The notes beneath the pieces were generated by a model, which did not search any database, had not been told where the DNA came from, and saw only the letters and a list, made by a program, of their open reading frames with translations. From the NCBI GenBank assembly GCA_038063995.1, contig JBBTUA010000007.1:5219-69218 (forward strand): a stretch of DNA of 64,000 bases, written 5' to 3'. The position numbers and the translations under genes are program-made. Positions 37,134 to 58,830 of the stretch are shown piece by piece. The stretch is from Patescibacteria group bacterium. Its GTDB lineage: Bacteria; Patescibacteriota; Minisyncoccia; 2-02-FULL-40-12. How positions within the stretch are numbered: the first letter of the stretch is position 1; each line of letters starts with the position of its first letter.

Positions 37134-37163
37134 TTGACAAAAGGCACAACTTTGATATATAAT
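37134..37163 (+). promoter_or_regulatory. sigma70-type promoter for GC-rich ORF A
   Basis: TTGACA at 37134-37139, about 18-nt spacer, TATAAT at 37158-37163; GGAGA RBS before ATG 37241. Confidence 0.5.
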
Positions 37164-37240
37164 ATAAATATACTCAAAAGCCCTGAAATACGGGCTTTCA
37201 GAAAGCAATTCCGCTCTTTGAAAAAAATGGAGAACTGACC

Positions 37241-37990
37241 ATGACTGAACAATTGATCGGTGTGTTGCCGGGCGAGGTGCTTGGCACGCTGGCGGACATC
37301 ATGCTGAAGCTCAAAAACGGCGGCATCACGCCGGACGAGCTCAAGCGGTTCGCTAAACGGGAGAATCCGTTCGACGGAATGCCGTCGGCGACGAAAGTCC
37401 AAGTCGGTTCGGTCGCCCGTTCCGTCGATGAATTCGTGGCCGAGTGGGGCAATTTTTACCGTGAAATCGGCATCGAAGTTGATCTCACAGGCCTTCGAGT
37501 CCCCGAGCGGCGCGAAGGTTTTGACCGGCTCATTGTGGTGGCCAAAGGAATGAGTCCAGAGCGAGCTTATCAGAAATGCCTCGAGCACTTCCGATGCTGG
37601 AAGTATGTCGGAGACCGGAATCTCGACGAGAGCGTATTCGACATCGATTGCCTGGAACGCAAGTACCGCCGATCCGACAACGAAACCTACGCCGTGTGGG
37701 TGCGCGACCGCGAGGAAGCTGACCAGGAATTGAAGAATCGTTCGGCCAACGATCTGGCGGTGGCCAAGATTTCCGGCATCACCCTCGAAGCCCGTGAGCT
37801 TTACGAGCTCAAGTACTTCAAGGAGACCGGAAAGCACCTTGACCGCTACAACTGGACGCTTTGCGCGGGTTCGCGGAGCGTCGATGGCCGTGTGCTGAGG
37901 TCCGGCTGGAACGACGGCAGGTTCTTTCTGGGCTGGTACGATCCCGTCGGCGCCCACGGCGTTCTTCGCTCCCGTGAAGCAGTTTCGTAA
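37241..37990 (+). CDS. GC-rich hypothetical protein; candidate DGR target (VR-like 3' end)
   Basis: 249 aa; last 45 nt upstream of stop (37934-37978) align to TR-like 38358-38402 with 11 mismatches, 9 at template adenines; Trp/Gly/Asn-rich C-terminus. Confidence 0.6.
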   Translation: MTEQLIGVLPGEVLGTLADIMLKLKNGGITPDELKRFAKRENPFDGMPSATKVQVGSVARSVDEFVAEWGNFYREIGIEVDLTGLRVPERREGFDRLIVVAKGMSPERAYQKCLEHFRCWKYVGDRNLDESVFDIDCLERKYRRSDNETYAVWVRDREEADQELKNRSANDLAVAKISGITLEARELYELKYFKETGKHLDRYNWTLCAGSRSVDGRVLRSGWNDGRFFLGWYDPVGAHGVLRSREAVS

Positions 37991-38023
37991 CCTTGTACCT
38001 TTTTTCTTGTAACCTTTCTTCTG

Positions 38024-38072
38024 CAGCCACACTCTAAGGAGGTGATTTCATAGAGTGTGGCTGTTTTGTTTT
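38024..38072 (+). terminator. strong hairpin / terminator downstream of ORF A
   Basis: CAGCCACACTCT .. AGAGTGTGGCTG (12-bp perfect stem) followed by TTTTGTTTT. Confidence 0.7.
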
Positions 38073-38262
38073 CCGAGAATTTATAATAATATAAATGGCT
38101 AATATAACCGGCCCCTAGCGGTATCGGTTTGCCTATCAAAAACGAAACTGCTTGCCTGGTTTTTGTGAAGATTTCCATTTTAAGATGGGATGCTTCTTGA
38201 AAAATTCCGATTGAGATAATCGGCTAACCCAGATAATCTTGAAAAAGATTATCGGTGATTTG

Positions 38263-38440
38263 GATGAAATCAGGCAAAGAAACGGGTTCGCGGAATTTCG
38301 ATGGCAACGTGCCGGGCGTGAACTGGAACGGCAACAACGACGAGATGAAGGTGAATTGGTACAATCCTGACAACGCCAACGACAATCTCCGCTCCCGCGA
38401 GAAGTCTCGAAGAAGAAATCCCGCCTAGTCGCGGGATTTC
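38263..38440 (+). other. DGR template-repeat (TR)-like adenine-rich element with 3' hairpin
   Basis: AAC-rich segment (aactggaacggcaacaacgacgag..gacaacgccaacgacaat) read through by a 54-codon ORF; GC-rich hairpin GAAATCCCGC ctagt GCGGGATTTC at 38415-38440; sits about 100 nt upstream of the RT fragment. Confidence 0.55.
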
Positions 38441-38543
38441 TATTTTTGATTCAAATACTTTATCCAGCCGTTGGTCATTCTGGAGATTTCCTGCAAGTCA
38501 GAATCGAATTCAAGATATTTGTTTTTAATTAAACCAATGCAAC

Positions 38544-38948
38544 GTGACAAGCCAGTTGTTCGCCAATATCTATCTGAACGAACTTGATCAATTTGTAAAG
38601 CATAAATTTAAAATAAAATATTACATCCGTTATTGCGACGATTTCGTAATTCTTGGCGAAAATAGAAACGATTTATTTTTGATGGCTGAGAGAATCAATG
38701 GGTTTTTCAAAGAAAGTTTGAATTTATCTCTTCATTCTGACAAGATAATCATCAAGAAGTATAAACAAGGCATCGATTTTCTCGGATATGTAGTTTTGCC
38801 TTATCACCGCGTTTTAAGGACGAGAACAGAAAGAAGAATATTCAGAAAAATAAACAAAAATAATAATCAGTCCGTTCAATCTTACTTAGGCGTTTTGAAA
38901 CACTGCAATAGTTATGAAGTCAAAAAGAAACTGTTAAAAATATTATGA
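38544..38948 (+). pseudogene. reverse transcriptase C-terminal fragment (motifs 4-7), DGR-type
   Basis: N..TSQLFANIYLNELD (motif 4 with the SQ typical of DGR RTs), YIRYCDDFVIL (YxDD), GIDFLGY; frame opens at a GTG after a stop at 38526, so motifs 0-3 are missing. Confidence 0.75.
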
Positions 38949-39709
38949 TCATCGACGGCAGAAAAATCGCTCAAAAAGTCTTTCAACAAGTTCAGGAGAA
39001 GTTTTTAGAGATTAAAAAGCCGTTGCGGTTAGCCGCAGTTTTGGTGGGTGGCGATCCGGAGCTGAAAAAGTTTTTGGAACTCAAAAAGAAAAGGGCCGAA
39101 GAAATCGGCATTGGATTCAGGATATACGAATTTTCAGAAGACATTGATAACAGCCGGCTGGAAAAAGAATTAAATGATATAGCGATGAACCCGGACATCC
39201 ACGGAATCATTATTGAATTGCCTTTGCCTAAACATTTAGATACTCAAAATATTTTAAATATCATTCCAGAAGAAAAAGATGTTGATGCATTGTCGGGTAA
39301 AAACAAAGTTTTGCCTCCGGCCGTTGAAGCGGTAAGTCAGATTTTTAAAGAATACAAAATTGATCCAAAAGGCAAAAAAGCGGTAGTTTTCGGTCAGGGT
39401 CTTTTAGTCGGAAAACCGGTCAGTCATTGGCTTGCTATTCAAGGAGCGCAAGTTTTAATAATTGATGAATTTACGGAAAATCCGGGGGAATTTTCCAGAG
39501 AGGCCGATATAATAGTTTCCGGAGTCGGACATCCCAATCTTATAACCGGCGATATGGTAAAAGACGGTGCAGTAGTGATTGATTTCGGCAAAGATGTTGA
39601 TTTTGAAAATGTTTCGAAAAAGGCTGGTTTGATTACTCCGCCAACAGGCGGAGTCGGGCCGATAGTCGTAGCCGCGGTTTTAAAGAATCTAGTCGAACTA
39701 TGGAGCTAA
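38945..39709 (+). CDS. folD: bifunctional methylenetetrahydrofolate dehydrogenase/cyclohydrolase
   Basis: MIIDGRKIAQKV ... TPPTGGVGPIVVAAVL; ATGA-overlapped with the RT fragment. Confidence 0.75.
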   Translation: MIIDGRKIAQKVFQQVQEKFLEIKKPLRLAAVLVGGDPELKKFLELKKKRAEEIGIGFRIYEFSEDIDNSRLEKELNDIAMNPDIHGIIIELPLPKHLDTQNILNIIPEEKDVDALSGKNKVLPPAVEAVSQIFKEYKIDPKGKKAVVFGQGLLVGKPVSHWLAIQGAQVLIIDEFTENPGEFSREADIIVSGVGHPNLITGDMVKDGAVVIDFGKDVDFENVSKKAGLITPPTGGVGPIVVAAVLKNLVELWS

Positions 39710-40170
39710 TAATTATTTTTTTAGCTAAATATTTGCCCTATATTCTGTTGGCTGTTTTTTTTGTTTTATTTTTGAAGAAAATAAATTGGAGCTTTCTGTT
39801 TGTTCCTTTGATTTCCGCTTTGATTTCAAGATTTGTTTTTACCGAACTCATCAGATTTTTTTACTTCCGGCCGCGGCCGTTTGTAGAACAGGGGTTTGTT
39901 CCTTTATTTGAGCACGATCCGACTGCTTCTTTTCCTTCGGGACACGCCGCGTTTTTTTTCGCCTTATCGGCCGGAGTTTATTCGTTTAATAAAAAAGCCG
40001 GACTTTGGTTTTTCGCGGCTAGTTTTTTAGTAGGTTTTGCCAGGTTTTTAGCGGGAGTGCATTATTTTTCTGATATTTTAGGAGGGGCAGCCCTTGGAAT
40101 TTTTTCTTTTTGGCTCGTAGAATTTTTAATCGTTCGTTTCTTTAAAAAGACGGTTGATATAGAAAATTAG
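39700..40170 (+). CDS. PAP2-family membrane phosphatase
   Basis: PSGHAAFFFA and SRFVFTELIRFFYFRPRP PAP2 motifs. Confidence 0.7.
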   Translation: MELIIIFLAKYLPYILLAVFFVLFLKKINWSFLFVPLISALISRFVFTELIRFFYFRPRPFVEQGFVPLFEHDPTASFPSGHAAFFFALSAGVYSFNKKAGLWFFAASFLVGFARFLAGVHYFSDILGGAALGIFSFWLVEFLIVRFFKKTVDIEN

Positions 40171-40224
40171 AACAACTTTTATCTTCTTCATAAAATGCAG
40201 TATTCTTGAATTAGTCCGAACGCA

Positions 40225-40312
40225 TTTCGCCGCCTGCGGCGGCGAGAAAGTCCCCCCGCCTGCGTGGCCGAAGCCACTTCGGCGAGGCGAAGGCCCGCGA
40301 AAATTCGGAAAG
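40225..40312. repeat. GC-rich hairpin repeat cluster (cgaagccacttcg family)
   Basis: CGCCGCC tgc GGCGGCG; CCGAAGCCACTTCGG; the same GCGAAGCCACTTCGC core recurs at 13897-13925. Confidence 0.55.
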
Positions 40313-40362
40313 GTGGCGGAGCCGCACGAATGACAATTTCAAGTTTTTCTTTGGCGGCATAC

Positions 40363-41124
40363 TTACTTAATCAAGCCGGAAACCTTGTAAAATATTTTTC
40401 CCTGAATACTTGATTTAGTGATAGGTCCAAAACTGCGAGAATCAAAACTCTTTGTGCGATTATCGCCCAGAACAAAGTATTGATCTTGGTTGAGGGTTAC
40501 GGAACTATCCGGTAATGTTTCGCCATTATAATAACTTTCATTTAACACCTGCCCATTTATGAGAACTTTACCACCTTTTATATCAACTTTTTCTGAAGGC
40601 AATCCGATTATTCTTTTGATTAGAAAAGAGCTTGGTTGCTTTTCGGTACGAAATATAACCACATCACCGCGAGCGAAATTTTTATCAAATTTATTTATCA
40701 AAAGATAATCGCCATTGTTGTATGTTGGGCTCATCGCTTCTCCACTTACAGCAAAAGGTTCAAATACATAGAGCCGAGTAGGAATTACAACAACTAAAGA
40801 AACGATGATGCCAACTATTCCAAACACAACGTAAATTCCTAAAGATTTTTTCCAAGAGCTAAGATAATACTTTTTGAGAAAATAATGAAAAGCAAAAAAT
40901 GAAGCAACTGTAACAATAATATTAGATAGCAAACCTAAATTTATGATACTAAAAATTATTCCAACAATACCACCGGCGATACCAGAAAATATTAAAGTTT
41001 TAACAGAATTTTTATATGTTGGATTTTCTATCTTGAATAATTTTTCTACCCACACCAAAATACCAGCTTCCGCTAGGAATGTTATTATTGCTAGAATTAT
41101 AACCCCTAAAATGAGTAGTGCCAT
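40363..41124 (-). CDS. lepB: signal peptidase I with extended N-terminal membrane domain
   Basis: IKRIIGLPSEKVDIKGGKVLINGQ and GDNRTKSFDSRSFGPI S26 motifs. Confidence 0.8.
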   Translation of the reverse strand: MALLILGVIILAIITFLAEAGILVWVEKLFKIENPTYKNSVKTLIFSGIAGGIVGIIFSIINLGLLSNIIVTVASFFAFHYFLKKYYLSSWKKSLGIYVVFGIVGIIVSLVVVIPTRLYVFEPFAVSGEAMSPTYNNGDYLLINKFDKNFARGDVVIFRTEKQPSSFLIKRIIGLPSEKVDIKGGKVLINGQVLNESYYNGETLPDSSVTLNQDQYFVLGDNRTKSFDSRSFGPITKSSIQGKIFYKVSGLIK

Positions 41125-41183
41125 AAATTATTTATTCGACTTAATGATTAAAAAATTTTCTTTTCTTCTTTCTCCTAAAACAT

Positions 41184-41226
41184 GGTTCGAGCCTTCGCTA
41201 AAGCTATGGATGGGCACAGCGAACCG
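41184..41226. repeat. cgaag/cttcg-family repeat copy in the lepB-toxin intergenic region
   Basis: GGTTCGAG CCTTCGCTAAAGCTATGGA .. CGAACC. Confidence 0.6.
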
Positions 41227-41273
41227 ATATTTTTAACGGGTTCTTTTACAGTTTTGATGTCCATAAACCTTAT

Positions 41274-41531
41274 TTAGTAGGTGCTACTCGTGCGTCGTTT
41301 AATTTCAGAAACGTAAATAATCTTTTTATCTCCGTAGACCTCATAGAGAATTCGATATGAGCCAATGCGTCGTCGCCAGGCGTCTTTTTGCCCTTCAACT
41401 TTTTCAATATCTCCGGCATAAGGGTTATACTGTAATTCTTTTAATGTTTCTCTGATGCGGTCAGCGTCTTTTCTCGAGATGCGTTTAAGGTATTTTTTGG
41501 CATACCCATCAATGAGTACCGTCCAATTCAT
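41274..41531 (-). CDS. RelE/ParE-family type II toxin
   Basis: 85 aa; overlaps the upstream small antitoxin-like gene. Confidence 0.55.
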   Translation of the reverse strand: MNWTVLIDGYAKKYLKRISRKDADRIRETLKELQYNPYAGDIEKVEGQKDAWRRRIGSYRILYEVYGDKKIIYVSEIKRRTSSTY

Positions 41532-41739
41532 TTTCTAATTCTTCAAGAGTTATGTAGTTGCCTTTAGCCAAATTTTTTCGTCCTTTTGCCAGCGTTTTTA
41601 GTTCTGTTTTGGTTGGTTTAAAAGCTTTGGTTGATTTGACTCTTTTTAGCCAAGTCAAAAACTCTTTGTAGGTACTACGCGGGACTGCTACTAAGTCCCC
41701 GTTTTTTTGCAGTTTATTTGGAATAGTTATAGTTGGCAT
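41509..41739 (-). CDS. putative antitoxin partner of the RelE/ParE toxin
   Basis: 76 aa; promoter-proximal, 23-nt overlap with toxin gene. Confidence 0.45.
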   Translation of the reverse strand: MPTITIPNKLQKNGDLVAVPRSTYKEFLTWLKRVKSTKAFKPTKTELKTLAKGRKNLAKGNYITLEELENELDGTH

Positions 41740-41790
41740 GACTTTATAATAACTTTTTCTTTAAAATAAGGCAAGATAATTTAAAACAAA

Positions 41791-41874
41791 TGCCGAGAGA
41801 GGGAGTCGAACCCTCAAGTCCTTGCGGACGACTGATTTTGAATCAGTTGCGGTTGCCAATTTCGCCATCTCGGC
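41791..41874 (-). tRNA. tRNA-Leu (anticodon CAA)
   Basis: reverse complement: acceptor GCCGAGA/TCTCGGC, anticodon loop TTCAAAA, long variable arm, T loop TTCGACT; 84 nt. Confidence 0.8.
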
Positions 41875-41935
41875 TTATGATTGTCAAATTTCAAATCCAT
41901 TGTATCAAAATTTTCAAAGATTTACAATTAAATTA

Positions 41936-42712
41936 ATGGCACGAGTTATAACAACTTGGAATCAAAAAGGAGGGGTTGGAAAATCTACTACTTGTGTGAA
42001 TCTTGGGGCATATTTTGCTGCCCTTGGCAAGCATGTTCTTCTTGTTGATTTGGACTCTCAAGCGAATCTAAGCGCCGGTCTCGGAATAAAAATAGCAAAA
42101 GACCAGTACAGCATTTATCACGCTCTTGTCGCCGACGTTGAGCCGGGCGCTCTTGTCAAAAAAACATCTATTTTCAATCTTGATATTTTACCATCTTCTG
42201 AAAGTTTAGCCGGAGCCAATGTTGAGCTGGTCGGATTTAAAAACCGCGAGCTCCAGCTTAAAAAAGTTTTAAGCAAGATAAAAGACGACTATGATTTCGT
42301 TTTGATCGATTGCCTTCCCTCGGTCGGGGTATTGAGCATTAATGCCTTGGCCGCCTCGGATCATATTTTAATTCCTGTCCAAACCGAATTTTTCGCCTTA
42401 TCCGGTTTGGAAGAACTTCTTACAGTGGTAGATTTGGTTAAAAAATATTTGAACCCCGAACTTAAAATTCTGGGAATCGTTATGACGATGTTTGATAAGA
42501 GAAGCCAGTTGAACAGAGATATTTTAAACCAGGTCCATAAAAGTTTTCCCGGCTATGTTTTCAGTTCTGTAATACCCCGCCAGATCTCTTTTGCCGAAGC
42601 GCCGTCTTACGGGAAAAGCATTCTTCAGCACGATCCATATTCAAAAGGAGCCCGGGCTTACCGCAATCTGGCTCTGGAAGTTTTATCTAAAATTTTTCCG
42701 AGTCCAGTTTAA
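41936..42712 (+). CDS. parA: ParA/Soj-family partition ATPase
   Basis: Walker A WNQKGGVGKSTT; start set at internal Met because the annotated 5' end overlaps the tRNA. Confidence 0.85.
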   Translation: MARVITTWNQKGGVGKSTTCVNLGAYFAALGKHVLLVDLDSQANLSAGLGIKIAKDQYSIYHALVADVEPGALVKKTSIFNLDILPSSESLAGANVELVGFKNRELQLKKVLSKIKDDYDFVLIDCLPSVGVLSINALAASDHILIPVQTEFFALSGLEELLTVVDLVKKYLNPELKILGIVMTMFDKRSQLNRDILNQVHKSFPGYVFSSVIPRQISFAEAPSYGKSILQHDPYSKGARAYRNLALEVLSKIFPSPV

Positions 42713-42717
42713 ATAAA

Positions 42718-43077
42718 ATGAAAGCTAGGGGATTAAAAGCTTTGATTCCGACAAAACCCAGAGTTAAACCTAAAAGAAAAAAGGAGAGCGTTTATTATGT
42801 AGAAATAAAAAAGATCAAGGAAAAGCCTGAAGATATGAAAAGAATTCTAGACCAGAAGATTTTGGAAGAAATGGCTGATTCAATCAGAAAGTACGGAGTA
42901 GTCCAGCCGCTTATTCTGGCTAGGGTTGAAAAGAAAAAGAGAAGAGGTATAAATGTGTATTACGAGCTTGTTTCCGGAAAAAAGCGGCTCATCGCTGCAA
43001 AAGAAGCGGGATTAAAAGTGGTTCCCGCAGTAATCAAAGCCTTACCGAAACAGAATGATAAAAATCTCAAAATCTAG
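42718..43077 (+). CDS. ParB N-terminal-domain-only protein
   Basis: 119 aa; VVQPLILARV and LVSGKKRLIAAKEAGLKVVPAVI ParB/Srx motifs; no DNA-binding or dimerisation domains. Confidence 0.6.
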   Translation: MKARGLKALIPTKPRVKPKRKKESVYYVEIKKIKEKPEDMKRILDQKILEEMADSIRKYGVVQPLILARVEKKKRRGINVYYELVSGKKRLIAAKEAGLKVVPAVIKALPKQNDKNLKI

Positions 43078-44488
43078 GATATTTTTGATTCTGATGTTTG
43101 GATTTATCTTGGGAGTCGGCGCTGGCTCCTTTTTTGATATATCTCAAAGAGCAATTTTGATTTTGGCTATTATAGCGACTTTGTTTTTAACGGTATTTTA
43201 CCGGCGAGGCTCAAGGATTCTGAATTCAAAAATAGCTTTCGCCGCAGTTGTTGCTTTGTTTTTCCTGGCCGGTCTTTTGCGGTTTGAAGTTTTGGAATCG
43301 CAGTCTAAAATCCTGACCAATTTCAATGATATAAACGCGGATATCAAAATACTGGGTTATGTAAATGATGAGCCGCAAAGATTAATTGATAAGCAAAGAT
43401 TGGTTGTTCAAGTTAAAGAAGCAAGAGTGCCGGGCTACGCGGTTTTTATGGATGAAAAAGTTTTAATAACGGCTAATTTGTATCCGGAGTTTGAATACGG
43501 CGATTTTATCTTGGTTGAAGGGAAAATTCAGAGCCCCAAAAAATTTGATAATGATTTTGATTACGCCGCATATCTGGCCAAAGATTCTATTTTTTCATTG
43601 TCGTATTATCCGAGAATCGTGGAAATCTCAAAAGCCGAATTTTTAAGAGAGCCGATGTCCAAGGCAGAAAGTCTGAAGATTTCGTTATTCAGAAAAATAT
43701 TCGCGTTCAAAAAAGATTTTGAGGAATCAATTGAGAAAGCTGTTGCTGAACCTAATGCCTCTCTGATCAATGGCCTTCTTCTCGGTTCGCGGGAAAGCAT
43801 TCCCCAAGATTTGAAAGATGCCTTTAACAAAACCGGGACTACTCATATTTTGGCTATCTCCGGCTACAATATAACGATTATCGCGCTTTATATTTCAGCT
43901 TTGCTTTTATTTTTCATACGCCGGCAGAAGGCTTTTTGGTTTGCGATACTGGCCATAGCTTTATTTGTTATTCTTACCGGTTCTTCTCCTTCGGTTGTGA
44001 GAGCGGCGATTATGGGAAGTCTGGTTTTGCTGGCTTATCGGGAAGGCAGATTTTACAGCGCGTCTAATGCCGTTATTTTTGCCGGGGCAGTGATGATTTT
44101 TTTAAACCCAAGAATTTTGCGTTTTGATTTGGGGTTTCAGCTTTCCTTTCTCGCCACCCTCGGCCTGATTTACATAGCTCCTAAAGTGAAAGAAAAACTG
44201 GAAAAAGTTCCGGAGTTTTGGACTTTCAAGGAGAATTTTATTTCAACGGTTTCCGCCCAGGCCGCGGTTCTGCCCCTGATTCTTTATCAGTTCAAAAGTT
44301 TTTCTTTTGTTTCTTTGCCGGCTAACTTTTTAATTCTGCCGGCTGTGCCTTTAACAATGCTTGCCGGATTTTTAACCGGAGTTGCGGGATTGATTTTCCC
44401 ATGGCTTGGCCAGATTTTCGGCGCGGCGGCCTGGCTTCTTTCGTCTTACGAGATTCTTGTAATAAAGTTTTTCAATTTGTTCGCCTGA
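43055..44488 (+). CDS. comEC: ComEC/Rec2 competence channel (membrane domains only)
   Basis: DUF4131-like N-terminus plus competence domain (HILAISGYNITII). Confidence 0.8.
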   Translation: MIKISKSRIFLILMFGFILGVGAGSFFDISQRAILILAIIATLFLTVFYRRGSRILNSKIAFAAVVALFFLAGLLRFEVLESQSKILTNFNDINADIKILGYVNDEPQRLIDKQRLVVQVKEARVPGYAVFMDEKVLITANLYPEFEYGDFILVEGKIQSPKKFDNDFDYAAYLAKDSIFSLSYYPRIVEISKAEFLREPMSKAESLKISLFRKIFAFKKDFEESIEKAVAEPNASLINGLLLGSRESIPQDLKDAFNKTGTTHILAISGYNITIIALYISALLLFFIRRQKAFWFAILAIALFVILTGSSPSVVRAAIMGSLVLLAYREGRFYSASNAVIFAGAVMIFLNPRILRFDLGFQLSFLATLGLIYIAPKVKEKLEKVPEFWTFKENFISTVSAQAAVLPLILYQFKSFSFVSLPANFLILPAVPLTMLAGFLTGVAGLIFPWLGQIFGAAAWLLSSYEILVIKFFNLFA

Positions 44489-44495
44489 CTTTTTT

Positions 44496-45362
44496 ATGCC
44501 GTTTCGTCAAAAATTAATCCTTGGCTTCGCTTTCTTTTTGATTTTTTCGGTGACTTTAGGTCTTCTTTTATGGCTCGCTAAAGACCAGGAATTAAAAATC
44601 TATTTTTTCGATGTCGGCCAGGGGGATTCGATACTCATTGAGACGGAAAATAAAAAGCAGATTTTGATTGACGGAGGTCCGGATAATTCAATTGTGAAAA
44701 AACTCCCCAAAGCAATGTCTTTTTGGGACAGGACCATTGATTTAGTCATCCTTACTCATCCGGATAAAGATCACATCGCCGGCCTTTTGGAAGTTTTGAA
44801 AAGGTATCAGGTCAAAGGAATAGTTGAAACCGGAGTTAAGTGCGAAAAGCCCGAATGCCTGGTTTGGGAGAATTTAAAAAATAGAGAAGAAGCAGTTATT
44901 GTCTCGCCAAAGCTTGGGGATTCAATAACCTTGGATGAAAATACAAAAATTTTGATCCTCCATCCCTTTGAAAAAGTTTCCGGAGAATATTTTTCAAAAG
45001 CAAATAATACTTCTATCGTGGCCAAACTTACTTACGGAGAACACAAATTTTTATTCACCGGTGATATTGAAAAACAGGTTGAAGAAAAACTGGTCTTGGC
45101 CGGAGTAGATATTGATTCAGACTATTTAAAGACGCCGCATCACGGAAGCAAGACCTCGAGCACGGAAATTTTTCTTGATGCGGTTTCGCCTTTGGCCGCT
45201 TTTATTTCTTTAGGTTTGGATAATTCTTACGGGCATCCTCATAGGGAAGTCACGGAACGGCTTGAAAACAAAGACATAAAATATTATCGTACTGATGCCA
45301 GCGGAACTATTTTATTAAGGTGTAAATTAAACTCGCTATGCCAAGTAGAAACACAAAATTAA
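44496..45362 (+). CDS. MBL-fold metallo-hydrolase (ComEC C-terminal domain as a separate gene)
   Basis: LTHPDKDHIAGL, TPHHGSKTS metallo-beta-lactamase motifs. Confidence 0.8.
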   Translation: MPFRQKLILGFAFFLIFSVTLGLLLWLAKDQELKIYFFDVGQGDSILIETENKKQILIDGGPDNSIVKKLPKAMSFWDRTIDLVILTHPDKDHIAGLLEVLKRYQVKGIVETGVKCEKPECLVWENLKNREEAVIVSPKLGDSITLDENTKILILHPFEKVSGEYFSKANNTSIVAKLTYGEHKFLFTGDIEKQVEEKLVLAGVDIDSDYLKTPHHGSKTSSTEIFLDAVSPLAAFISLGLDNSYGHPHREVTERLENKDIKYYRTDASGTILLRCKLNSLCQVETQN

Positions 45363-45973
45363 AAAAGATGGCTGAACTTTTGGCCGACCCCAAACATCCT
45401 AGAGAGGAAAAAACTTTGGTTTTGATAAAACCGGATGCCGTGAAAAGGGGGTTGATCGGTGAAATAATAAAACGTTTTGAAACGCGGGGGCTTAAAATTA
45501 TAGGCCTGAAGATGATTCATGGAACTAAAAAAGATTTTGACAGGCATTATCCCAGAGGCAAAGAATGGATAACAAATTTAGGGAACAGAACCGTAGAAAC
45601 TTATAAAAAATACAATTATAACTTGAAGAGTGATTTCGGAAGCGAAGATCCTTTTAAAATCGGCCAGATTTTCCGCAACTGGCTGACTGATTTTATGTCT
45701 TCCGGCCCGGTGGTCAAGATTTTAATAGAAGGCGTGCATTCTATTGATGTTGTCAGAAAAATCGTCGGCGACACCCAGCCGCATTTTGCCTTGACCGGGA
45801 CAATCAGAGGAGATTTCAGCGTTGATGCCGCTGCTGCGGCAAATAAGTCTGGCCGGGCAGTCCATAATTTGATTCATGCTTCCGGCAATAAGGAAGAGGC
45901 CAGAAACGAGATAATGCTTTGGTTTAACCCTGACGAGGTCTGCGATTACAAAAGAGTTGAAGAGTTGATTTGA
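45338..45973 (+). CDS. ndk: nucleoside diphosphate kinase (long form with insertion)
   Basis: TLVLIKPDAVKRGLIGEIIKRFE .. NLIHASG active-site region. Confidence 0.7.
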   Translation: MPSRNTKLKKMAELLADPKHPREEKTLVLIKPDAVKRGLIGEIIKRFETRGLKIIGLKMIHGTKKDFDRHYPRGKEWITNLGNRTVETYKKYNYNLKSDFGSEDPFKIGQIFRNWLTDFMSSGPVVKILIEGVHSIDVVRKIVGDTQPHFALTGTIRGDFSVDAAAAANKSGRAVHNLIHASGNKEEARNEIMLWFNPDEVCDYKRVEELI

Positions 45974-46031
45974 ATTCAACGGCTAAACGGGTTTAGCCGT
46001 TTAAAAACAAATACGCCATCCGGATGGCGTA

Positions 46032-46103
46032 TTTGTTTTTTATCGGGCTGTCCGGAATTGAACCGGAATACCTGGACCCCCAGCCCAGTGTAATAACCTT
46101 TAT
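46032..46103 (-). tRNA. tRNA-Pro (anticodon GGG)
   Basis: reverse complement: acceptor CGGGCTG/CAGCCCG, anticodon loop CTGGGGG, T loop TTCAATT; 72 nt. Confidence 0.7.
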
Positions 46104-46321
46104 ACGACAGCCCGGAGCGGAACCTCCTTTATTTTTTTGATTTTTGATTCTTTATGTAAAGTCTTAATGCAATCAGTGCAGATTTTCATTCTCTTTCCGT
46201 TGACTAAAGCCCACTGAAGATTCGGCTTCTGGCGGTAAATTTTTGTCGGATTATAATGGCCGCGAAGAAGTTTTCGCTTTATCGCTTTCATTGGTTTTTT
46301 CCCACAGCGCGGACAACGCAT
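46100..46321 (-). CDS. rpmB: 50S ribosomal protein L28
   Basis: CPRCGKK .. NPTK .. PNLQ .. NGKRMKICTDCIK matches the bL28 pattern. Confidence 0.65.
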   Translation of the reverse strand: MRCPRCGKKPMKAIKRKLLRGHYNPTKIYRQKPNLQWALVNGKRMKICTDCIKTLHKESKIKKIKEVPLRAVV

Positions 46322-46325
46322 AAAA

Positions 46326-46362
46326 TTAGAATATAGAATTTAGAATAGAGAATATAGAATAT
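46326..46362. repeat. AGAATATAGAA-family repeat
   Basis: TTAGAATATAGAATTTAGAATAGAGAATATAGAATAT between rpmB and M50 protease. Confidence 0.65.
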
Positions 46363-46416
46363 TAAAGATTTAAAGGCCATTTTACAGAATACATTAAAAA
46401 TGATATTTTTTCAATA

Positions 46417-47028
46417 ATGGAAGGATTTGTTTTGATTATTTTTCAAATTCTCGTGGTTCTATTTTCAATCGTCATTCACGAGGTAAGCCATGGACTGATG
46501 GCTCATAGCTTGGGTGATCCGACGGCTAAAAACGCGGGCCGCTTAACTTTGAATCCTCTACCTCACTTGGATATTTTCGGTTCGATCCTTCTCCCTTTTC
46601 TTACTTTTACTTTGGGCGGATTTGTTTTCGGCTACGCCAAGCCCGTGCCTTATAATCCCGTATATCTTTCGGACAGAAAATACGGACCGGCCAAAGTGGG
46701 TGTTAGCGGGCCCGCCTCTAATATAATCATTGCTTTGGTTTTCGGTTTGATTTTGAGATTTATGCCAGTTTTTTTGCAATCAACTATTCTGCCCGAACTT
46801 TTTTCTTTCATTGTTTTGATCAACTTGGTCCTGGCGGTTTTTAATCTTTTGCCGGTGCCGCCGCTTGACGGCCATTGGCTGTTGCTTACTTTTATTCCTG
46901 ACCGTTTTTATAATTTTAAAAGATTTTACCTTCAATACGGTTTAGTTCTTTTTATTTTAGTCTTGCTCTTTGTCTTGCCTTTGATTTTCCCTCTGGTTTT
47001 CAAACTGTTTAGGTCGATAGTGGGGTAG
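46417..47028 (+). CDS. site-2 protease-family (M50) intramembrane zinc metalloprotease
   Basis: HEVSHGLMAH HExxH in a TM helix; polytopic. Confidence 0.7.
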   Translation: MEGFVLIIFQILVVLFSIVIHEVSHGLMAHSLGDPTAKNAGRLTLNPLPHLDIFGSILLPFLTFTLGGFVFGYAKPVPYNPVYLSDRKYGPAKVGVSGPASNIIIALVFGLILRFMPVFLQSTILPELFSFIVLINLVLAVFNLLPVPPLDGHWLLLTFIPDRFYNFKRFYLQYGLVLFILVLLFVLPLIFPLVFKLFRSIVG

Positions 47029-47040
47029 GCTTCTTAACCT

Positions 47041-47068
47041 TGACAAAACCTGTGGATTTGCTATAATA
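47041..47068 (+). promoter_or_regulatory. near-consensus sigma70 promoter at the start of a GC-rich island
   Basis: TTGACA 47041-47046, 16-nt spacer, TATAAT 47063-47068. Confidence 0.55.
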
Positions 47069-47232
47069 CAAATATCAAGCTGAAAAAGCTTAAAACAGCA
47101 CTTTTATATAAGAATTACTTACGAGACTCGCCATAGCCTTGTGGCATTAAGGAAAGCTTTAATACTGAAAGGCTATGGCGGCATTCCGTTGCCTAGTTCA
47201 TCCAAAAGGAGGATGACGCCTTGACTTAGATC

Positions 47233-47391
47233 ATGACCGCATCCGGAATGAGTGACGGACAGATCGAGACCGTGGTTGAACAGCTTCGCGCCGCGATGCG
47301 AAAGCATCGGGAGGAGGTCCAGAAAGACGCCGCCCAGCAAGCGCTCGGCGTGGACAATCTCGGTATGAGGATGTTTGTTGTTTTTCGCTAA
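47233..47391 (+). CDS. small GC-rich ORF (52 aa) upstream of target-like ORF B
   Basis: AAGGAGG RBS about 20 nt upstream; not in ORF track (<60 aa). Confidence 0.3.
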   Translation: MTASGMSDGQIETVVEQLRAAMRKHREEVQKDAAQQALGVDNLGMRMFVVFR

Positions 47392-47403
47392 CTCGCGGAA
47401 ACA

Positions 47404-47841
47404 ATGAACAATCTCATCGTCCGGTACGTGAAGGTGGACCGCACCAAGACCCCGGAGCAGATGCTTGAGGCCACGGGCCGGCGACAGTACACCGACGCAG
47501 ACGTGGTCAAGGCCATGCCGAGGGGCGACGGCGACGAAGGAGAGGTCTTTTTCTTCAAGCTCGACCTCTCAAGCCGCGGCGGCCACATCAGCAATGACGA
47601 CATGGAGAAGGAATACGAACTGCGCGGCCTCAAGCCCGCAGACCCGTACAAGCTCTCTCAGGTCAATGTCGACGACCCGGCCTTTGCCGATGAGCACCCC
47701 AACAGCACCCACTGGAAGGATACCAATGGCAGATGGTGTTTTGCCTTGTTCCACCAGTGGGACGGCAGGCGCCGCGTGCGCGTCTACCGCGGCGCCTATG
47801 GCTGGAACGCCTACTGGTGGTTTGCCGGCCTTCGCAAGTAG
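47404..47841 (+). CDS. GC-rich hypothetical protein B; candidate DGR target paralog
   Basis: 145 aa; Trp-rich C-terminus (WDGRRRVRVYRGAYGWNAYWW) weakly similar to the ORF A C-terminus; shares ggctggaacg with ORF A and aactggaacgg with the TR-like element; 270 nt upstream of the RT N-terminal fragment. Confidence 0.5.
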   Translation: MNNLIVRYVKVDRTKTPEQMLEATGRRQYTDADVVKAMPRGDGDEGEVFFFKLDLSSRGGHISNDDMEKEYELRGLKPADPYKLSQVNVDDPAFADEHPNSTHWKDTNGRWCFALFHQWDGRRRVRVYRGAYGWNAYWWFAGLRK

Positions 47842-48114
47842 TCCTTTGACCTTTGTTCCTTTGGTCTCGTTGGCCTTTGGAATTTGGTCCTTGGAACTCT
47901 TGGCCCGCATCTGCTTACAAGCAGATGCAGGCCTTTTTCTTTAAATATGTTAAAATTTTAAACGGCAATAGGTGAATATGCGGAAGATCACGGTTTTTCG
48001 CTACCGAACCCAGTATCCATAAAACCGAGAGTATCTCCGACTAAGGTTTATGAGATAGAGTAGTTTATGAGAACTTAAAAAATGAAGATACTTGGTGTGG
48101 TAAGCTAGGGTATT

Positions 48115-48465
48115 TTGATACTGAATTCGATACAATCCGGAGAGTATTCAACGGATAGTGGCATGGACGGCTTGCCATACGATTCGCCACGTTCAACCAG
48201 TGGTCTGATAGATAATATTATTTGGCTTCACAATGATTTAAAGAACTTTAAATATAATCACGGCGGCTATAAGGCATTCAAAATCAACGACCCGAAACCG
48301 AGAAATATCCATAAGGCAACAGTCAGAGACAGATTATTGTACCATGCTATTTACCGGGTTCTTTATCCTTTTTTTGATAAGACTTTCATTTTTGATTCTT
48401 TTTCTTGCCGAAACAAAAAAGGAACTCACAGAGCTTTAAATAGATTCAGATTTTTTGCATATTAA
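48115..48465 (+). pseudogene. reverse transcriptase N-terminal fragment (motifs 0-2), DGR-type
   Basis: GGYKAFKINDPKPRNIHKATVRDRLLYHAIYRVL .. FDSFSCRNKKGTHRALNR matches GxYxxxxFxIxDPKxRxI, DR..hhA and SYGFRxGRsxHxAl; ORF stops before motif 3. Confidence 0.7.
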
Positions 48466-48553
48466 GTTAAAATTAAAAATAAAATCCTTCAAAGAATAAT
48501 TATTGCCTAATAAAAATCTTTGTGTTAGTATTTTTCTGCTAAATCGAAAACAT

Positions 48554-48964
48554 ATGCCGACTTTCAGGCAGTTATTGAAAAACCCGAGAAAGATTATAAA
48601 GGCGAAGACAAAATCGCCGGCTTTAGCTTTCGGTTTCAACACAAACAAAAATAAGCCGGTTGATTATTTTTCTCCTTTCAAAAGAGGAGTTTGCGTAAAG
48701 GTAACAACCGTGACTCCCAAAAAGCCGAACTCGGCTTTGCGGAAAATCGCCAGAGTCCGTTTGACCAACGGCCAGGAAGTGACCGCATATATTCCCGGAA
48801 TCGGCCATAATCTTCAGGAGCACTCGGTGGTGATGATAAGAGGCGGTCGGGTCAAGGATCTGCCTGGAGTCAGATACCATATTGTAAGGGGGATGCTGGA
48901 CTCGGCTGGAGTGGAAGGCCGGAAACAGCAAAGAAGCAAATACGGAGCAAAGCGCCCGAAATAA
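48554..48964 (+). CDS. rpsL: 30S ribosomal protein S12
   Basis: MPTFRQLLK .. [10 protein letters not shown]; start set at internal Met. Confidence 0.9.
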
Positions 48965-48988
48965 ATTATCAATTCTATATTCTAATCT

Positions 48989-49456
48989 ATGAGACGAGGA
49001 AACGTTCCGAAAAGAAAAATTGAACCAGACATCAAATACGAAAGCGGTTTAGCCGCCAAATTTGTTAATTATGTAATGAAAGACGGGAATAAAACCATTG
49101 CCCGAAAAATTGTTTACGGGGCTTTGGAAAATTCTGAAAAAAAACTCGGCAAAGGAGCTCTCGAAATTCTCGAACAGGCTATAAGAAATGCCGGGCCGGA
49201 AATGGAACTGCGGTCCCGCCGTATCGGAGGCGCCAATTACCAGATTCCTTATCCGGTCAAGCCGGAAAGAAGAATTACTTTGGCCTTGCGCTGGATAATT
49301 GAAGCGGCCAGAGCGAAAAGCGGGCAGTCAATGATAGAAAAATTAACCCAGGAGTTAGCCGATGCTTATTCTAACACCGGAGCGGCGGTTAAGAAAAAGA
49401 TGGATACTCACAGAATGGCTGAAGCAAATAAGGCATTCGCCCATTTTGCCTGGTAG
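48989..49456 (+). CDS. rpsG: 30S ribosomal protein S7
   Basis: MRRGNVPKRKIEPD... Confidence 0.9.
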   Translation: MRRGNVPKRKIEPDIKYESGLAAKFVNYVMKDGNKTIARKIVYGALENSEKKLGKGALEILEQAIRNAGPEMELRSRRIGGANYQIPYPVKPERRITLALRWIIEAARAKSGQSMIEKLTQELADAYSNTGAAVKKKMDTHRMAEANKAFAHFAW

Positions 49457-49460
49457 CAGA

Positions 49461-49497
49461 AAGAATATAGAACAAAGAATATAGAACATAGAACGAG
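49461..49497. repeat. AGAATATAGAA-family repeat, left arm flanking the four-helix-bundle gene
   Basis: AAGAATATAGAACAAAGAATATAGAACATAGAAC. Confidence 0.65.
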
Positions 49498-49498
49498 A

Positions 49499-49846
49499 AT
49501 GACCAACACTTTTAAAGATTTGATAGTTTGGCAAAAGTCTAAACAACTAGCCGTAGAAATCTATAAACTAACAGAAAAGTTCCCCAAGTCAGAATTGTAT
49601 GGTTTAGTAAGTCAGATGCGCCGAGCGGCAATTTCAATTTCATCAAATATAGCCGAAGGCTATAAAAGGTTTCATAGTAAAGAGAAAAAGCAATTGTTTT
49701 CAGTTGCTTCTGGCTCCGGGACTGAATTAGAAAGTCAAATAGAGATAACTAAGGAATTATTCCCAGAAATAGATTTTTCAAAATCTATTTTACTTTTAGA
49801 AGAAATAATGAAAATATTAAACAACTTTGTTAAAAAGTTGTCTTAG
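49499..49846 (+). CDS. four-helix-bundle protein of the 23S rRNA intervening-sequence / Avd family
   Basis: DLIVWQKSKQLAVEIYKLTEKFPKSELYGLVSQMRRAAISISSNIAEG family signature (the family that includes DGR Avd); flanked by inverted AGAATATAGAA repeats; inserted between rpsG and fusA. Confidence 0.75.
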   Translation: MTNTFKDLIVWQKSKQLAVEIYKLTEKFPKSELYGLVSQMRRAAISISSNIAEGYKRFHSKEKKQLFSVASGSGTELESQIEITKELFPEIDFSKSILLLEEIMKILNNFVKKLS

Positions 49847-49850: not shown

Positions 49851-49886
49851 GAATTCTATATTCTAAGTTCTATATTCTAAATTCTA
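49851..49886. repeat. AGAATATAGAA-family repeat, right arm in inverted orientation
   Basis: GAATTCTATATTCTAAGTTCTATATTCTAAATTCTAT; reverse complement matches the left arm. Confidence 0.65.
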
Positions 49887-52003
49887 TGCCGCGTGATTAT
49901 CCCATTGAGAAAACAAGAAACATTGGCATCATTGCTCATATAGACGCCGGCAAAACAACCGTAAGCGAGCGCATTTTATTTTACACCGGCGTTTCCCACA
50001 AAATCGGAGAAGTTCACGAAGGGGAAGCGATAATGGACTGGATGGAGCAGGAACGGGAGAGAGGCATCACTATCACCGCCGCCGCGACAACGGTTTTTTG
50101 GATTCCCACATATTTAAGAGAAATCCAAAACAGAAAAGAATTTGAATACAAGATAAACATAATTGATACTCCGGGGCACGTTGATTTTACCGTTGAAGTC
50201 GAACGTTCCCTTAGAGTTTTAGACGGAGCAGTAGTTGTTTTTGACGGAGTCGCCGGAGTCGAACCCCAGTCAGAAACCGTTTGGCGTCAGGCTGATAAAT
50301 ATAAAGTTCCCAGAATTTGTTTCGTAAATAAGCTAGATAGGCTTGGCGCTTCGTTTGAACGTTCTTTTCAGTCAATTTTGGCAAGGCTTACCCCAAATGC
50401 GGTAAGGGTGCAGATTCCTGATGGTGAGGAAGACAAATTCACCGGCGTAGCCGATCTTTTGAAAATGAAATTTTACCGTTTTGAGGGCAAGTTCGGCGAG
50501 TCAACCGTTGAAAGTGAAATTCCAGATAATCTGAAAGAAGCAGCCCAGAAATACCATCACGAACTGATTGAAAAAATAGCCGAAAACGACGACGAGCTCA
50601 CGGAACTGTTTTTGGAAGGCAAAGAAATTCCTTTGGAAAGATTAATTGCCTCTTTAAGAAAGTCAGTTTTAAATTATAAATTGGTTCCGGTTTACTGCGG
50701 TTCGGCTTTAAAAAACAAAGGGGTCCAACTGGTTTTGGACGCCGTGATTGATTATCTGCCATCTCCGATCGAGGTTCCGCCGGTCAAAGGGGTTAACCCG
50801 AAAACCGGAGAGGCCGAAGAAAGGCATCCAAAAGACGAGGAGCCCTTTACTGCCTTGGCTTTTAAAGTAGCTACTGATCCTTATGTCGGTCAGCTTACCT
50901 TTTTCCGCGTTTATTCAGGAATTTTAAAAGCCGGTTCTTATGTTTTGAATGTAACCAAAAACGAAAAAGAAAGAATCGGCCGGATTTTGCGGATGCATGC
51001 CAATGAAAGACAGGAATTGTCCGAAGTTTATGCCGGCAACATCGCGGCCACGGTCGGTTTGAAATCCACCCGGACCGGCGATACGCTTGCCGATCCCGGT
51101 TGGCCGGTTATTTTGGAGGAAATAGTTTTTCCGGAGCCGGTCATATCTTTAAGAATCGAACCCAAGACAAAAGCTGACCAGGAAAAAATGTCTCTGGCTT
51201 TAAAACGTTTGTCTGATGAAGATCCGACTTTCAGAATCAGGAGCGACAGCGAAACAGGCGATACAGTCATTTCAGGAATGGGCGAATTGCATCTTGAAAT
51301 CATTGTTGACCGGATGAAAAGGGAATTTGGAGTCGTGGCTAATATCGGCCGGCCTCAAGTTGCTTACAAAGAAACAATCCAAGGTTCAACAGAAGTTGAG
51401 GGAAAATATATACGCCAGTCGGGTGGAAGAGGTCAATACGGCCATGTTTGGCTGCGCCTTGAACCACTTGAGCAAGGTAAGGGTTTTGAGTTTGTGGATG
51501 CTATAAAAGGAGGGACGATTCCGGATGAATTTATTCCAGCCATTGAAAAAGGAATTATGGAGGCTAAGGAGAAAGGAGTTTTAGCCGGTTATCCGATGAC
51601 TGATTTTAAAGCGACAGTGTATGACGGTTCTTTTCATGAGGTTGATTCTTCGGAGATTGCTTTTAAAATCGCTGCTTCTTCGGCTTTTCAAGATGGGGCC
51701 AAGCGCTCGAAACCAGTTATCCTCGAACCGATTATGAAATTGGAAGTCATAGTTCCGGAAAAGTTTATGGGCGAAACAACCGGAGATCTTTCAAGCCGCC
51801 GGGGCCAGATTCTGAATATTTCAGATCGCGAGAACTTGAATCTTAAAGTAATTGATGCTAAAGTTCCTCTTGGCGAAATGTTCGGTTATGCCACAGTTTT
51901 GCGTTCGCTTACCGAAGGCAGAGGCACATTTACTATGGAATTTTCAAACTATGAAGTGGTGCCGCAAAACGTGGCTGATCAAATTGCCGCCGGCAAAAAA
52001 TGA
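49886..52003 (+). CDS. fusA: elongation factor G
   Basis: [10 protein letters not shown]1 motif; EF-G domains II-V. Confidence 0.9.
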
Positions 52004-55582: not shown

Positions 55583-56407
55583 ATGAAACACTATAAACCA
55601 ATAACTCCGGGGAGAAGACAGATGACCGGATACGATTTTAAAGGCTTATCAAAAGCCAGACCTTTGAGATCTTTGGTTATAGATTTGAAAAAGAATCCGG
55701 GGCGGGCTTCAAACGGAAGAATAACTTCAAGGCATAAGGGCGGCGGCCACAAAAAACTTTACAGGCTTATTGATTTCAAACAAAACAGATTTGATATTCC
55801 GGCTCGCGTTCAATCAATAGAATACGATCCTTACCGAAGCGCGAGAATCGCTTTAGTCAGCTATGTTGATGGAGAAAAAAGATATATTTTATCGCCTGAC
55901 GGCCTCAAGTCTGGAGATAAGATTCAATCATTTTCCGGCAAAGGAGGGATTGATATTGGAAACAGGATGAAATTAAAATTTATTTCCCAAGGGACTCTGG
56001 TTCATAATATCGAAATCAATCCGGGCCAAGGCGGCAAAATCGTCAGATCAGCCGGCACATCCTGTCAGGTTTTGGCCACAGAAGGCAGATATACTCAATT
56101 GAAAATGCCTTCCGGTGAAATAAGAATGTTTTTGTCGGAAAGCCGGGCTTCAATAGGCCAGGTTTCGAATCCGGAGCATATTCATATCAATTTTGGGAAA
56201 GCCGGCCGCTCAAGGTGGAAAGGCATTCGGCCGCGGGTCAGAGGTTCGGCTATGAATCCAGTTGATCATCCTCATGGCGGCGGCGAAGGAGCCCAGCCGA
56301 TAGGTTTATCCGGCCCTAAAACACCTTGGGGAAAGCCTGCCCGCGGAGTTAAAACCAGAAAGAGAAAAAAGAGATCAAGTAGATTAATTTTGAAGCGAAG
56401 AAAATGA
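55583..56407 (+). CDS. rplB: 50S ribosomal protein L2
   Basis: HPHGGGEG. Confidence 0.95.
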   Translation: MKHYKPITPGRRQMTGYDFKGLSKARPLRSLVIDLKKNPGRASNGRITSRHKGGGHKKLYRLIDFKQNRFDIPARVQSIEYDPYRSARIALVSYVDGEKRYILSPDGLKSGDKIQSFSGKGGIDIGNRMKLKFISQGTLVHNIEINPGQGGKIVRSAGTSCQVLATEGRYTQLKMPSGEIRMFLSESRASIGQVSNPEHIHINFGKAGRSRWKGIRPRVRGSAMNPVDHPHGGGEGAQPIGLSGPKTPWGKPARGVKTRKRKKRSSRLILKRRK

Positions 56408-56444
56408 AAATATTTAAATATTTAAATATTTAAACTTTTTATTT
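56408..56444 (+). promoter_or_regulatory. TTTAAATATTTAAAT intergenic motif upstream of rpsS
   Basis: aaaatatttaaatatttaaatatttaaac; same motif family at 55185-55203, 56787-56824, 58100-58151, 58790-58830, 59197-59212, 59519-59537, 60303-60342, 60745-60776. Confidence 0.6.
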
Positions 56445-56786
56445 ATGTCCAGATCACTCAAAAAAGGCCCATATGTTGATCCAAAACTGATGAAGAAAAT
56501 CAGCCGTCTTAAGCAAGGAGATAAAGCAGTTATTAAAACCTGGTCCAGAGATTCTACTATTGTTCCTGAAATGGTTGGTTTCACTTTCGGAGTGCATAAC
56601 GGCAAAATTCATATTCCTGTTTTCATTACCGAGGAGATGGTCGGGCATAAATTGGGAGAATTCAGTTTGACCAGAAAATTCGTGAGGCACGGAGGAAAGA
56701 TGCAGAGAGAGATTGAGGCCCAAGCCAAATTAAGGGAAATAGAGGCGGCTAAAGCTGCAAAGGCCACCGAAGAAATTAAAAAATGA
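56445..56786 (+). CDS. rpsS: 30S ribosomal protein S19
   Basis: [12 protein letters not shown]. Confidence 0.9.
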
Positions 56787-56824
56787 TGTTTAAATATTTA
56801 AATGTTTAAATATATAAATTATAT

Positions 56825-58789: not shown

Positions 58790-58830
58790 ATGAGAATATT
58801 TAAATATTTAGACATTTAAATGTATTCGGC

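Follow-up and report, generated by a model that had tools for sequence, protein, structure and literature searches.

Probable remains of two separate diversity-generating retroelement cassettes in a Patescibacteria genome

In an intact diversity-generating retroelement (DGR), the RNA of a template repeat (TR) is reverse-transcribed by a reverse transcriptase (RT) together with Avd, with misincorporation opposite adenines. The complementary DNA then replaces a variable region (VR) at the 3' end of a target gene, re-randomizing the ligand-binding surface. The prototype is the DGR of Bordetella phage BPP-1, with the order mtd-avd-TR-brt. An architecture of the form TR-(avd)-RT has been described as class B3 (Wu et al. 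2018, PMC5758913), and a 'DGR clade 2' restricted to the Candidate Phyla Radiation (CPR) has been recognized (Roux et al. 2021, PMC8144416). Here we analyze a 64,000-nucleotide stretch of a Patescibacteria group bacterium (contig JBBTUA010000007.1, positions 5,219 to 69,218), hereafter the window, in which parts of DGR cassettes occur at two places: locus 1, set between glyA and folD, and locus 2, set between an M50 peptidase gene (46417-47028) and rpsL. The cassettes belong to the CPR-restricted DGR clade and have the class B3 architecture. Very probably two distinct chromosomal cassettes of the Patescibacteria (CPR) type once stood here, each with the layout target(+)-TR(+)-avd(-)-RT(+), and what is left of both is dead (Table 1).

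Like intact CPR class B3 cassettes, the window has the order target-TR-avd(-)-RT, a VR at the very 3' end of a small target, an AAC-rich TR and hairpins both after the VR and after the TR, and its RT fragments are 80-84% identical to the RTs of such cassettes. Unlike them, it has neither an intact RT nor an intact avd and, at locus 2, no TR; the repeats of locus 1 (TR1 and VR1) have diverged in length as well as at positions other than adenine, and both the second target (T2) and the RT remnant of locus 2 carry nonsense mutations. The adenine-specific transfer from TR to VR known from BPP-1 is also seen in the window. In contrast to BPP-1, however, the window loci are chromosomal and, on our reading, inactive, avd follows the TR on the opposite strand, and the targets are small, cytoplasmic-looking and devoid of a Pfam domain. 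An earlier note on this DNA, made from the sequence alone, had started from the order target-avd-TR-RT; the clade found here instead has target-TR-(avd, reverse strand)-RT.

Table 1. Coordinates (window numbering) of the features of the two loci
Feature	Position	Strand	Details
Locus 1			
Promoter-like site 5' of target 1	37134..37163	+	TTGACA-18-TATAAT, 12/12 matches
Target gene 1 (T1)	37241..37990	+	249 aa, intact open reading frame, 58% GC
VR1, relic variable region at T1 3' end	37866..37989	+	
Hairpin	38024..38063	.	Perfect 12-bp stem, 16-nt loop containing AAGGAGGTGAT, then T-run
TR1, template repeat, still present	38283..38411	+	81% identical to L001 TR
Terminator-like hairpin between TR1 and convergent avd remnant	38414..38441	.	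11-bp stem, identical in L001
avd 3' remnant of the cassette	38440..38538	-	~31 codons (GLIKNKYLEFDSDLQEISRMTNGWIKYLNQK*); tblastn to L001 Avd
Deletion junction	38533..38540	.	837 bp missing relative to L001 (L001 7678-8514)
RT C-terminal fragment	38541..38948	+	Codons 172-308 of P0001, motifs 4-7 and thumb; Pfam RVT_1 E=5e-8
Locus 2			
Promoter-like site 5' of target 2	47040..47067	+	TTGACA-16-TATAAT with TG, 12/12 matches
Target gene 2 (T2), interrupted	47233..47841	+	52 + 145 aa; alignment to homologues
VR2, relic variable region	47740..47837	+	Equivalent to VRs of L009, L010
Terminator-like hairpin 3' of T2	47907..47928	.	
TR2 stub	48183..48203	+	First ~21 nt of template repeat, TTCGCCACGTTCAACCAGTGG
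Internal RT fragment	48204..48484	+	Codons ~43-135 of P0005, motifs 1-2a

The structure of locus 1 becomes clear from its syntenic counterpart, L001. Contigs identical to the window come from groundwater of the Hainich aquifer (well H51; genome ~41% GC), and L001 comes from the same aquifer. It has the order SHMT/glyA - target - TR - avd(-) - RT (308 amino acids (aa), P0001) - folD - PAP2 and is evidently a canonical, active DGR; its TR and VR, aligned without gaps over 125 nt, show 23 mismatches, 22 of them at TR adenines. Two blocks are shared, L001 6344-7677 with window 37204-38532 (77% identity) and L001 8515-10025 with window 38539-40013, and the gap between them means that the window lacks 837 bp. 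In L001 this segment holds the 5' two-thirds of avd, the avd-RT junction and RT codons 1-171. What is left of avd in the window is still recognizable: along 24 aa it is 79% identical to the C-terminal end of Avd from L001 (tblastn, 38452-38523, E=8e-10). Microhomology at the junction, considered as a trace of the deletion, amounts to CAAT/CAATG at most and, judged against a relative that is 77% identical, is not decisive. On the other side of the junction, the open reading frame (ORF) 38544-38948 encodes RT motifs 4-7 (NVTSQLFANIYLNELD, YCDD and GIDFLGY), with the SQ dipeptide present in motif 4. The earlier note had recognized this C-terminal half by the same motifs; the only correction concerns its frame, which opens after a TAA at 38526-38528, five and not six codons before the N of motif 4. 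The end of the fragment overlaps the start of folD (ATGA).

TR1 is rich in adenine (36 A in 129 nt), and the ORF that encloses it (38255-38428) contains 7 AAC and 5 AAT codons. The adenine- and AAC-rich, hairpin-terminated segment that had been suspected of being a TR is therefore confirmed as one. When the whole of TR1 is aligned with VR1, mismatches are found at 22 of 33 A and at 18 of 90 non-A positions (Fisher p=2e-6), together with one 6-nt and one 1-nt indel, so that the adenine bias, first noticed in a 45-nt block, persists in the full alignment. Within that block (38358-38402 against 37935-37979) there are 13 mismatches, 9 of which are at TR adenines (Fisher p=4e-4); the earlier count was 11, with VR coordinates one base off. 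Non-A mismatches number 18-21 between TR1 and VR1 as opposed to 0-1 in intact relatives; among 372 putatively functional DGRs that have been surveyed, no single target had more than 11 such differences (PMC5758913). A four-way comparison with L001 places the non-A changes on both copies, 13 on the VR and 8 on the TR, and assigns the 6-nt deletion to the VR. An active DGR would have overwritten these changes. VR1 is the only match of TR1 at three or fewer non-A mismatches per 45 nt in the whole window (both strands), and a window-wide self-blastn revealed no other adenine-biased repeat pair. The candidates had included the GC-rich ORFs at 36-1558, which were rejected as targets of TR1 because they contain no match at this threshold.

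The hairpin following the T1 ORF does have the perfect 12-bp stem ascribed to it earlier. It is kept in L001 with two compensatory C-G to T-A changes in the stem, and it is likely to be the terminator of the target and/or a cruciform for DGR target recognition. Its loop (38036-38051; L001 ~7186-7202) displays a perfect Shine-Dalgarno-like AAGGAGGTGAT, which is conserved in L001 and is followed by no ORF.

Locus 2 has counterparts of its own. In L009 the order is M50 peptidase - T2 homologue - TR - bAvd(-), with the M50 gene syntenic with that of the window, and L009 36-2094 aligns continuously with window 46143-48197. The loci L010 and L011 carry target - TR - bAvd(-) - RT with a T2 homologue as the target. 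All 18 TR/VR mismatches of L010 and almost all of those of L009 are at adenines; L005 and L008 are likewise canonical cassettes with TR/VR mismatches that are adenine-only or nearly so. In the window, T2 is interrupted by an in-frame TAA (47392-47394) at a position where relatives carry E, Q or K. The TR2 stub matches the 5' ends of the L009 and L010 TRs as well as the window's own VR2, and the deletion point, 48203/48204, marks the loss of the remaining TR sequence, of avd and of RT codons 1 to ~42; no remnant of an avd of locus 2 was found in the window. RT homology ends at ~48480-48484, just 5' of rpsL, with nothing after codon ~135, and a lysine codon shortly before this end has changed from AAA to TAA (48463-48465). 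The earlier note had assigned the ORF 48115-48465 to the N-terminal half of an RT. This holds for 48205-48462, which encodes RT codons ~43-128 and runs into a stop before motif 3. Before 48204 the frame translates the TR leader and the TR stub and contains no RT sequence; the ORF is thus a fortuitous product in which these two elements are joined to an internal piece of the RT.

Both RT fragments belong to the DGR clade, since their nearest full-length relatives (P0001, P0005 and the RTs of L008/L010) adjoin TR/VR pairs with adenine-only mismatches. The best match of both among solved structures is 8ub7_A, a 328-aa RT, ahead of group II intron RTs; from its IGSLTSQ and YMDD features we take 8ub7 to be the Bordetella phage bRT; the PDB code occurs in none of the papers searched. 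The NCBIfam group-II model gives the fragments 34-63 bits against a cut-off of 300, and no group II intron or retron RNA family is present in the window at Rfam gathering thresholds. Compared with group II intron and retron RTs, the fragments thus side with those of DGRs, and the earlier view of both loci as DGR-derived and degenerate is upheld. With respect to function, three things are wanting: a complete RT with all catalytic motifs (locus 1 keeps only codons 172-308 and locus 2 only ~43-135), an avd, and TR/VR identity at non-A sites.

The earlier note went further and combined the two loci into one DGR, with an RT split by rearrangement and its 5' half moved ~10 kb to the side of a second target. 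Indeed, the fragments are roughly complementary, with the N-terminal motifs in 48204-48484 and the C-terminal ones in 38541-38948, and each lies downstream of a GC-rich target-like ORF. Their closest relatives, however, are not the same. The N-terminal fragment of locus 2 is 80-84% identical to P0007, P0042 and P0005, proteins to which the C-terminal fragment of locus 1 is only ~50% identical; conversely, the C-terminal fragment shares 81-82% identity with P0001 and P0002, as opposed to 54-62% for the N-terminal one. Because the nearest relatives differ and the cross-identities are only ~50-62%, the fragments come from different lineages. This call relies on the nearest-neighbor contrast; a rank anticorrelation of hits was set aside as inflated by hit selection. 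The contrast refutes a common origin of the fragments from one RT, and other observations agree: either locus is colinear with the complete cassette of a relative, and each retains a piece of its own cassette, a TR stub at locus 2 and an avd tail at locus 1. Moreover, ~35 codons across motif 3 (the LKCDIKKFF region, with the catalytic aspartate) are missing from both fragments and from the entire 64-kb window, which contains no RT segments besides these two. Consequently, no functional RT is possible there, even by complementation between the fragments. A split RT is therefore extremely unlikely. Mis-assembly, also raised earlier, has practically no chance of being the explanation. Metagenome assemblies are liable to breaks and false joins where DGR repeats or strain variation occur, and chimeric joins between paralogous DGR copies might in this way have made the truncated genes. 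We compared assemblies from ENA (ERZ1292643 and ERZ1292627, different replicates) and Logan (ERR3858113 and ERR3858114) and one NCBI metagenome-assembled genome. Across the two junctions and the two VRs, the window sequence recurs at 100% identity in independent contigs from different replicates and pipelines (three assemblies for locus 1, four for locus 2); one contig spans both loci.

Several points nevertheless weigh against regarding both cassettes as dead. The analysis covers the window only, and an intact DGR elsewhere in the genome might conceivably provide RT and Avd in trans. The C-terminal RT fragment is still open over 134-139 codons, and its low non-synonymous divergence from L001 (pN 0.094, against pS 0.75) is somewhat surprising for an old pseudogene. 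The invariance of the VRs is that of consensus assemblies only, not of reads, and the T1 fold has no significant structural match. Supply in trans would make locus 1 a working target/TR pair. Nothing is missing from TR1, the flanking hairpins, the target ORF or the consensus promoter, a significant adenine bias persists, and trans action of avd/TR/RT and remote targets have been documented for other DGRs (Wu et al. 2018, PMC5758913). We consider it improbable all the same. The 18-21 non-A mismatches and two indels that separate TR1 from VR1 exceed the survey maximum of 11 (PMC5758913), VR1 is identical in all independent assemblies, the window encodes no other RT, and the cognate RNA flanks that DGR RTs need are partly deleted at locus 1. 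As to the C-terminal fragment, it might be argued that selection maintains it, be it as a protein in its own right or as a leader that is coupled to folD in translation. Besides the open frame and a pN that is low next to the saturated pS, this would be in line with the overlap of its stop with the folD start codon and with its annotation as a protein by NCBI (P0037). Yet its only start is a GTG within motif 4 with no evident ribosome-binding site, catalytic motif 3 is missing, and the intact RT of L001 overlaps folD likewise, which makes the overlap an ancestral feature. The low pN is accounted for just as well by a recent deletion, and selection on the fragment seems highly improbable.

We thus return to the decay of two cassettes, both of which were presumably active in their ancestral form. 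Replacement of the VR would have relied for guidance on the repeat's conserved 3' end, perhaps together with the hairpin downstream of it (38024-38063 in the window). At locus 1, a single deletion removed the 837-bp segment described above, leaving the target, the TR, the avd tail and the C-terminal half of the RT. At locus 2, deletions took the TR except for its 21-nt stub, all of avd, RT codons 1-~42 and everything after ~135, and both the target and the RT remnant are interrupted by nonsense mutations. With the machinery lost, the targets remain as fixed, 'frozen' variants, T1 as an intact ORF behind a consensus promoter. Some hints exist as to the order of events. Non-synonymous divergence of the RT fragments is low (pN 0.119 for the N-terminal fragment relative to L005 and 0.094 for the C-terminal one relative to L001, at pS 0.62-0.75), suggesting that they have not been drifting for long. 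For the C-terminal fragment this would point to a relatively recent deletion, which may be why it is still open over 134 codons. TR1 and VR1, on the other hand, differ at ~20% of non-adenine sites. The simplest, if tentative, reading is that mutagenic homing at locus 1 may have ceased first and the RT deletion followed later.

Seen in this way, an apparently exotic split RT comes down to the commonplace degeneration of two DGR cassettes, independent of each other, in a Patescibacteria genome of reduced type. The cassettes are relics of a known kind, and the C-terminal RT fragment is already publicly annotated as 'RNA-directed DNA polymerase'. Their value lies in providing a well-anchored example of DGR death, with the avd-RT core deleted, the TR and VR drifting apart and a once-hypervariable target 'frozen' behind a strong promoter, and in the availability of an intact syntenic counterpart for comparison at each locus.

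The targets themselves belong to poorly characterized families; neither T1 nor T2 contains a Pfam or NCBIfam domain. Homologues of T1 are hypothetical proteins restricted to Patescibacteria, and T1 is 63% identical to the L001 target. The T2 family comprises more than 460 Patescibacteria homologues, nearly all of ~200-210 aa. Outside the VR, pN/pS is ~0.24 for T1 relative to L001 and ~0.18 for T2 relative to L009, with synonymous sites near saturation in both comparisons; therefore both targets have been under purifying selection for most of the divergence. T1 is presumably still expressed and useful. The fold predicted for T2 is C-type-lectin-like. The T1 model is confident from residue ~60 and yields only a weak C-type-lectin match (3whd, E 0.7), while the last ~155 residues of T1 are predicted to have the same order of helices and strands as T2. 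A paralogous relationship between T1 and T2 was rejected at the sequence level (no blastp match, hhalign probability 2.4%). The earlier note was right in describing the ORF 47404-47841, the downstream part of T2, as GC-rich (61%) and close upstream of the ORF 48115 (273 nt), but the paralogy to the first target ORF that it assumed is not detectable in sequence. Both relic targets keep sigma-70 promoters with 12/12 consensus matches, an unusual strength for genes of unknown function.

A four-helix-bundle gene at 49499-49846 had been proposed as the Avd of the system. At the level of family and clan the assignment is sound: the gene matches PF05635 (1.5e-32; 112 bits against a cut-off of 33.8) and TIGR02436 (2.6e-32) over its full length, as expected of the 23S rRNA intervening-sequence/TIGR02436 family, and its best solved relative is XCC0516 (2gsc). 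With a DGR Avd it has only the clan-level fold in common. It stays under the curated cut-offs of both bAvd PF22296 (27.5 against 40 bits) and DivGenRetAVD NF033474 (21.4 against 80), and blastp against the cassette Avds (L001, L005, L009 and L011) gives E values of at least 0.17, whereas these Avds match one another at 1e-10 to 1e-40. Its surroundings do not tie it to the DGRs either: in species-representative genomes, an RT lies within 2.5 kb of none of its 80 closest relatives. The gene sits in the str operon between rpsG and fusA, and rpsL and rpsG separate it from the RT remnant. Ribosomal protein genes have been found inside five CPR DGRs (Wu et al. 2018, PMC5758913). An RT-rpsL-rpsG-avd architecture was considered for the window and rejected, given that the rpsG/fusA context recurs in 1 of the 80 relatives (L041) and an RT in none. 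It is a small, promiscuous gene that has entered the str operon and belongs to neither DGR. Its family is scattered, often with several copies per genome, over Patescibacteria, Omnitrophota, Planctomycetota and others. Labeling any four-helix-bundle gene of the 23S-rRNA-IVS type near an RT as 'Avd' is thus unsafe.

Another property of the clade concerns the base composition of the targets. We examined 37 cassettes with adenine-biased TR/VR pairs and derived a GC profile by segment from 34 of them; the loci sampled for target GC were T1 and T2 of the window, L001, L005, L008, L009, L010 and L096-L175. Mean GC is 50% in the non-VR part of the target (58% at third codon positions, GC3), as compared with 40% in the flanks and 34-35% in RT and avd; it reaches 62% in the VR and 52% in the TR. 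T2 of the window, with GC3 of 84%, is at the upper end among the targets. The boundaries of the enrichment are sharp at the ORF ends, and both halves of the ORF are equally enriched (~50%), so that a gradient towards the VR can be rejected. At third positions A and T are both depleted and C is the most enriched base, and for this reason an adenine-specific 'ratchet' was rejected too. Expression-linked codon bias is an unlikely cause, GC3 being ~0.38-0.42 in fusA, glyA and folD. We found no discussion of GC-rich DGR targets in the DGR surveys searched.

The RT genes of the clade also share a peculiar feature at their 5' end. A run of G residues is present there in 54 of 75 cassettes (G7-G16, mostly G9-G10), for example at L001 7937-7952, L005 6003-6012 and L010 7431-7439 and in most of L096-L175. 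It is conserved at the nucleotide level, and the Gly-Gly-Gly that it encodes is always written in GGG codons, which make up only 18% of the glycine codons of these RTs. The 249 kb of sequence from the same loci contain no further G/C run of 8 or more. The distance from the tract to the divergent avd start is ~10 nt, and in 6 of the 54 tracts, including that of L001 (G16), the upstream RT frame is closed. Judging by sequence features, the tract might be a slipped-strand contingency switch of the hypermutation machinery, an unstable site that could have seeded both deletions in the window; we regard this as a rather unlikely, speculative possibility. Both window deletions span the position of the tract, and neither has an end-point at it. 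Length differences between near-identical contigs were sought, and none was present in L005/L006/L007, L010/L011, L109/L110 or L162/L164. If upheld, the GC-rich targets and the poly-G tract would bear on the regulation of the element and on target marking, and would perhaps be worth more than the relics.

Some other features of the window deserve mention. Between glyA and target 1 lies a gene for a 490-aa deoxyhypusine-synthase-like protein (35633-37105; Pfam DS 4e-64; 51% GC) with an N-terminal extension of ~180 aa, which is absent from the syntenic locus L001. GC-rich ORFs without an assigned family (52-62% GC) occupy 1-1558 and 2446-2898, and by sequence the one at 668-1558 encodes a multi-pass membrane protein; none of them is a target of TR1. 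On the reverse strand at 41274-41739, a gene of the ParE-toxin family (PF05016) is accompanied by a small upstream partner ORF, beside tRNA-Leu and parA/parB; the two are likely to form a toxin-antitoxin pair. Finally, short tandem arrays are found directly 5' of start codons at 23483-23522, 32150-32185, 46318-46371, 49852-49887, 56403-56439, 56779-56822, 58105-58158, 58799-58841 and 60301-60354. One type has the unit (A/T)TTCTA(A/T)A in 4-5 copies, as just before the fusA ATG, and another has the unit TATTTAAA in 3-4 copies before several ribosomal-protein genes. These arrays may represent 5'-leader or translation-initiation elements.

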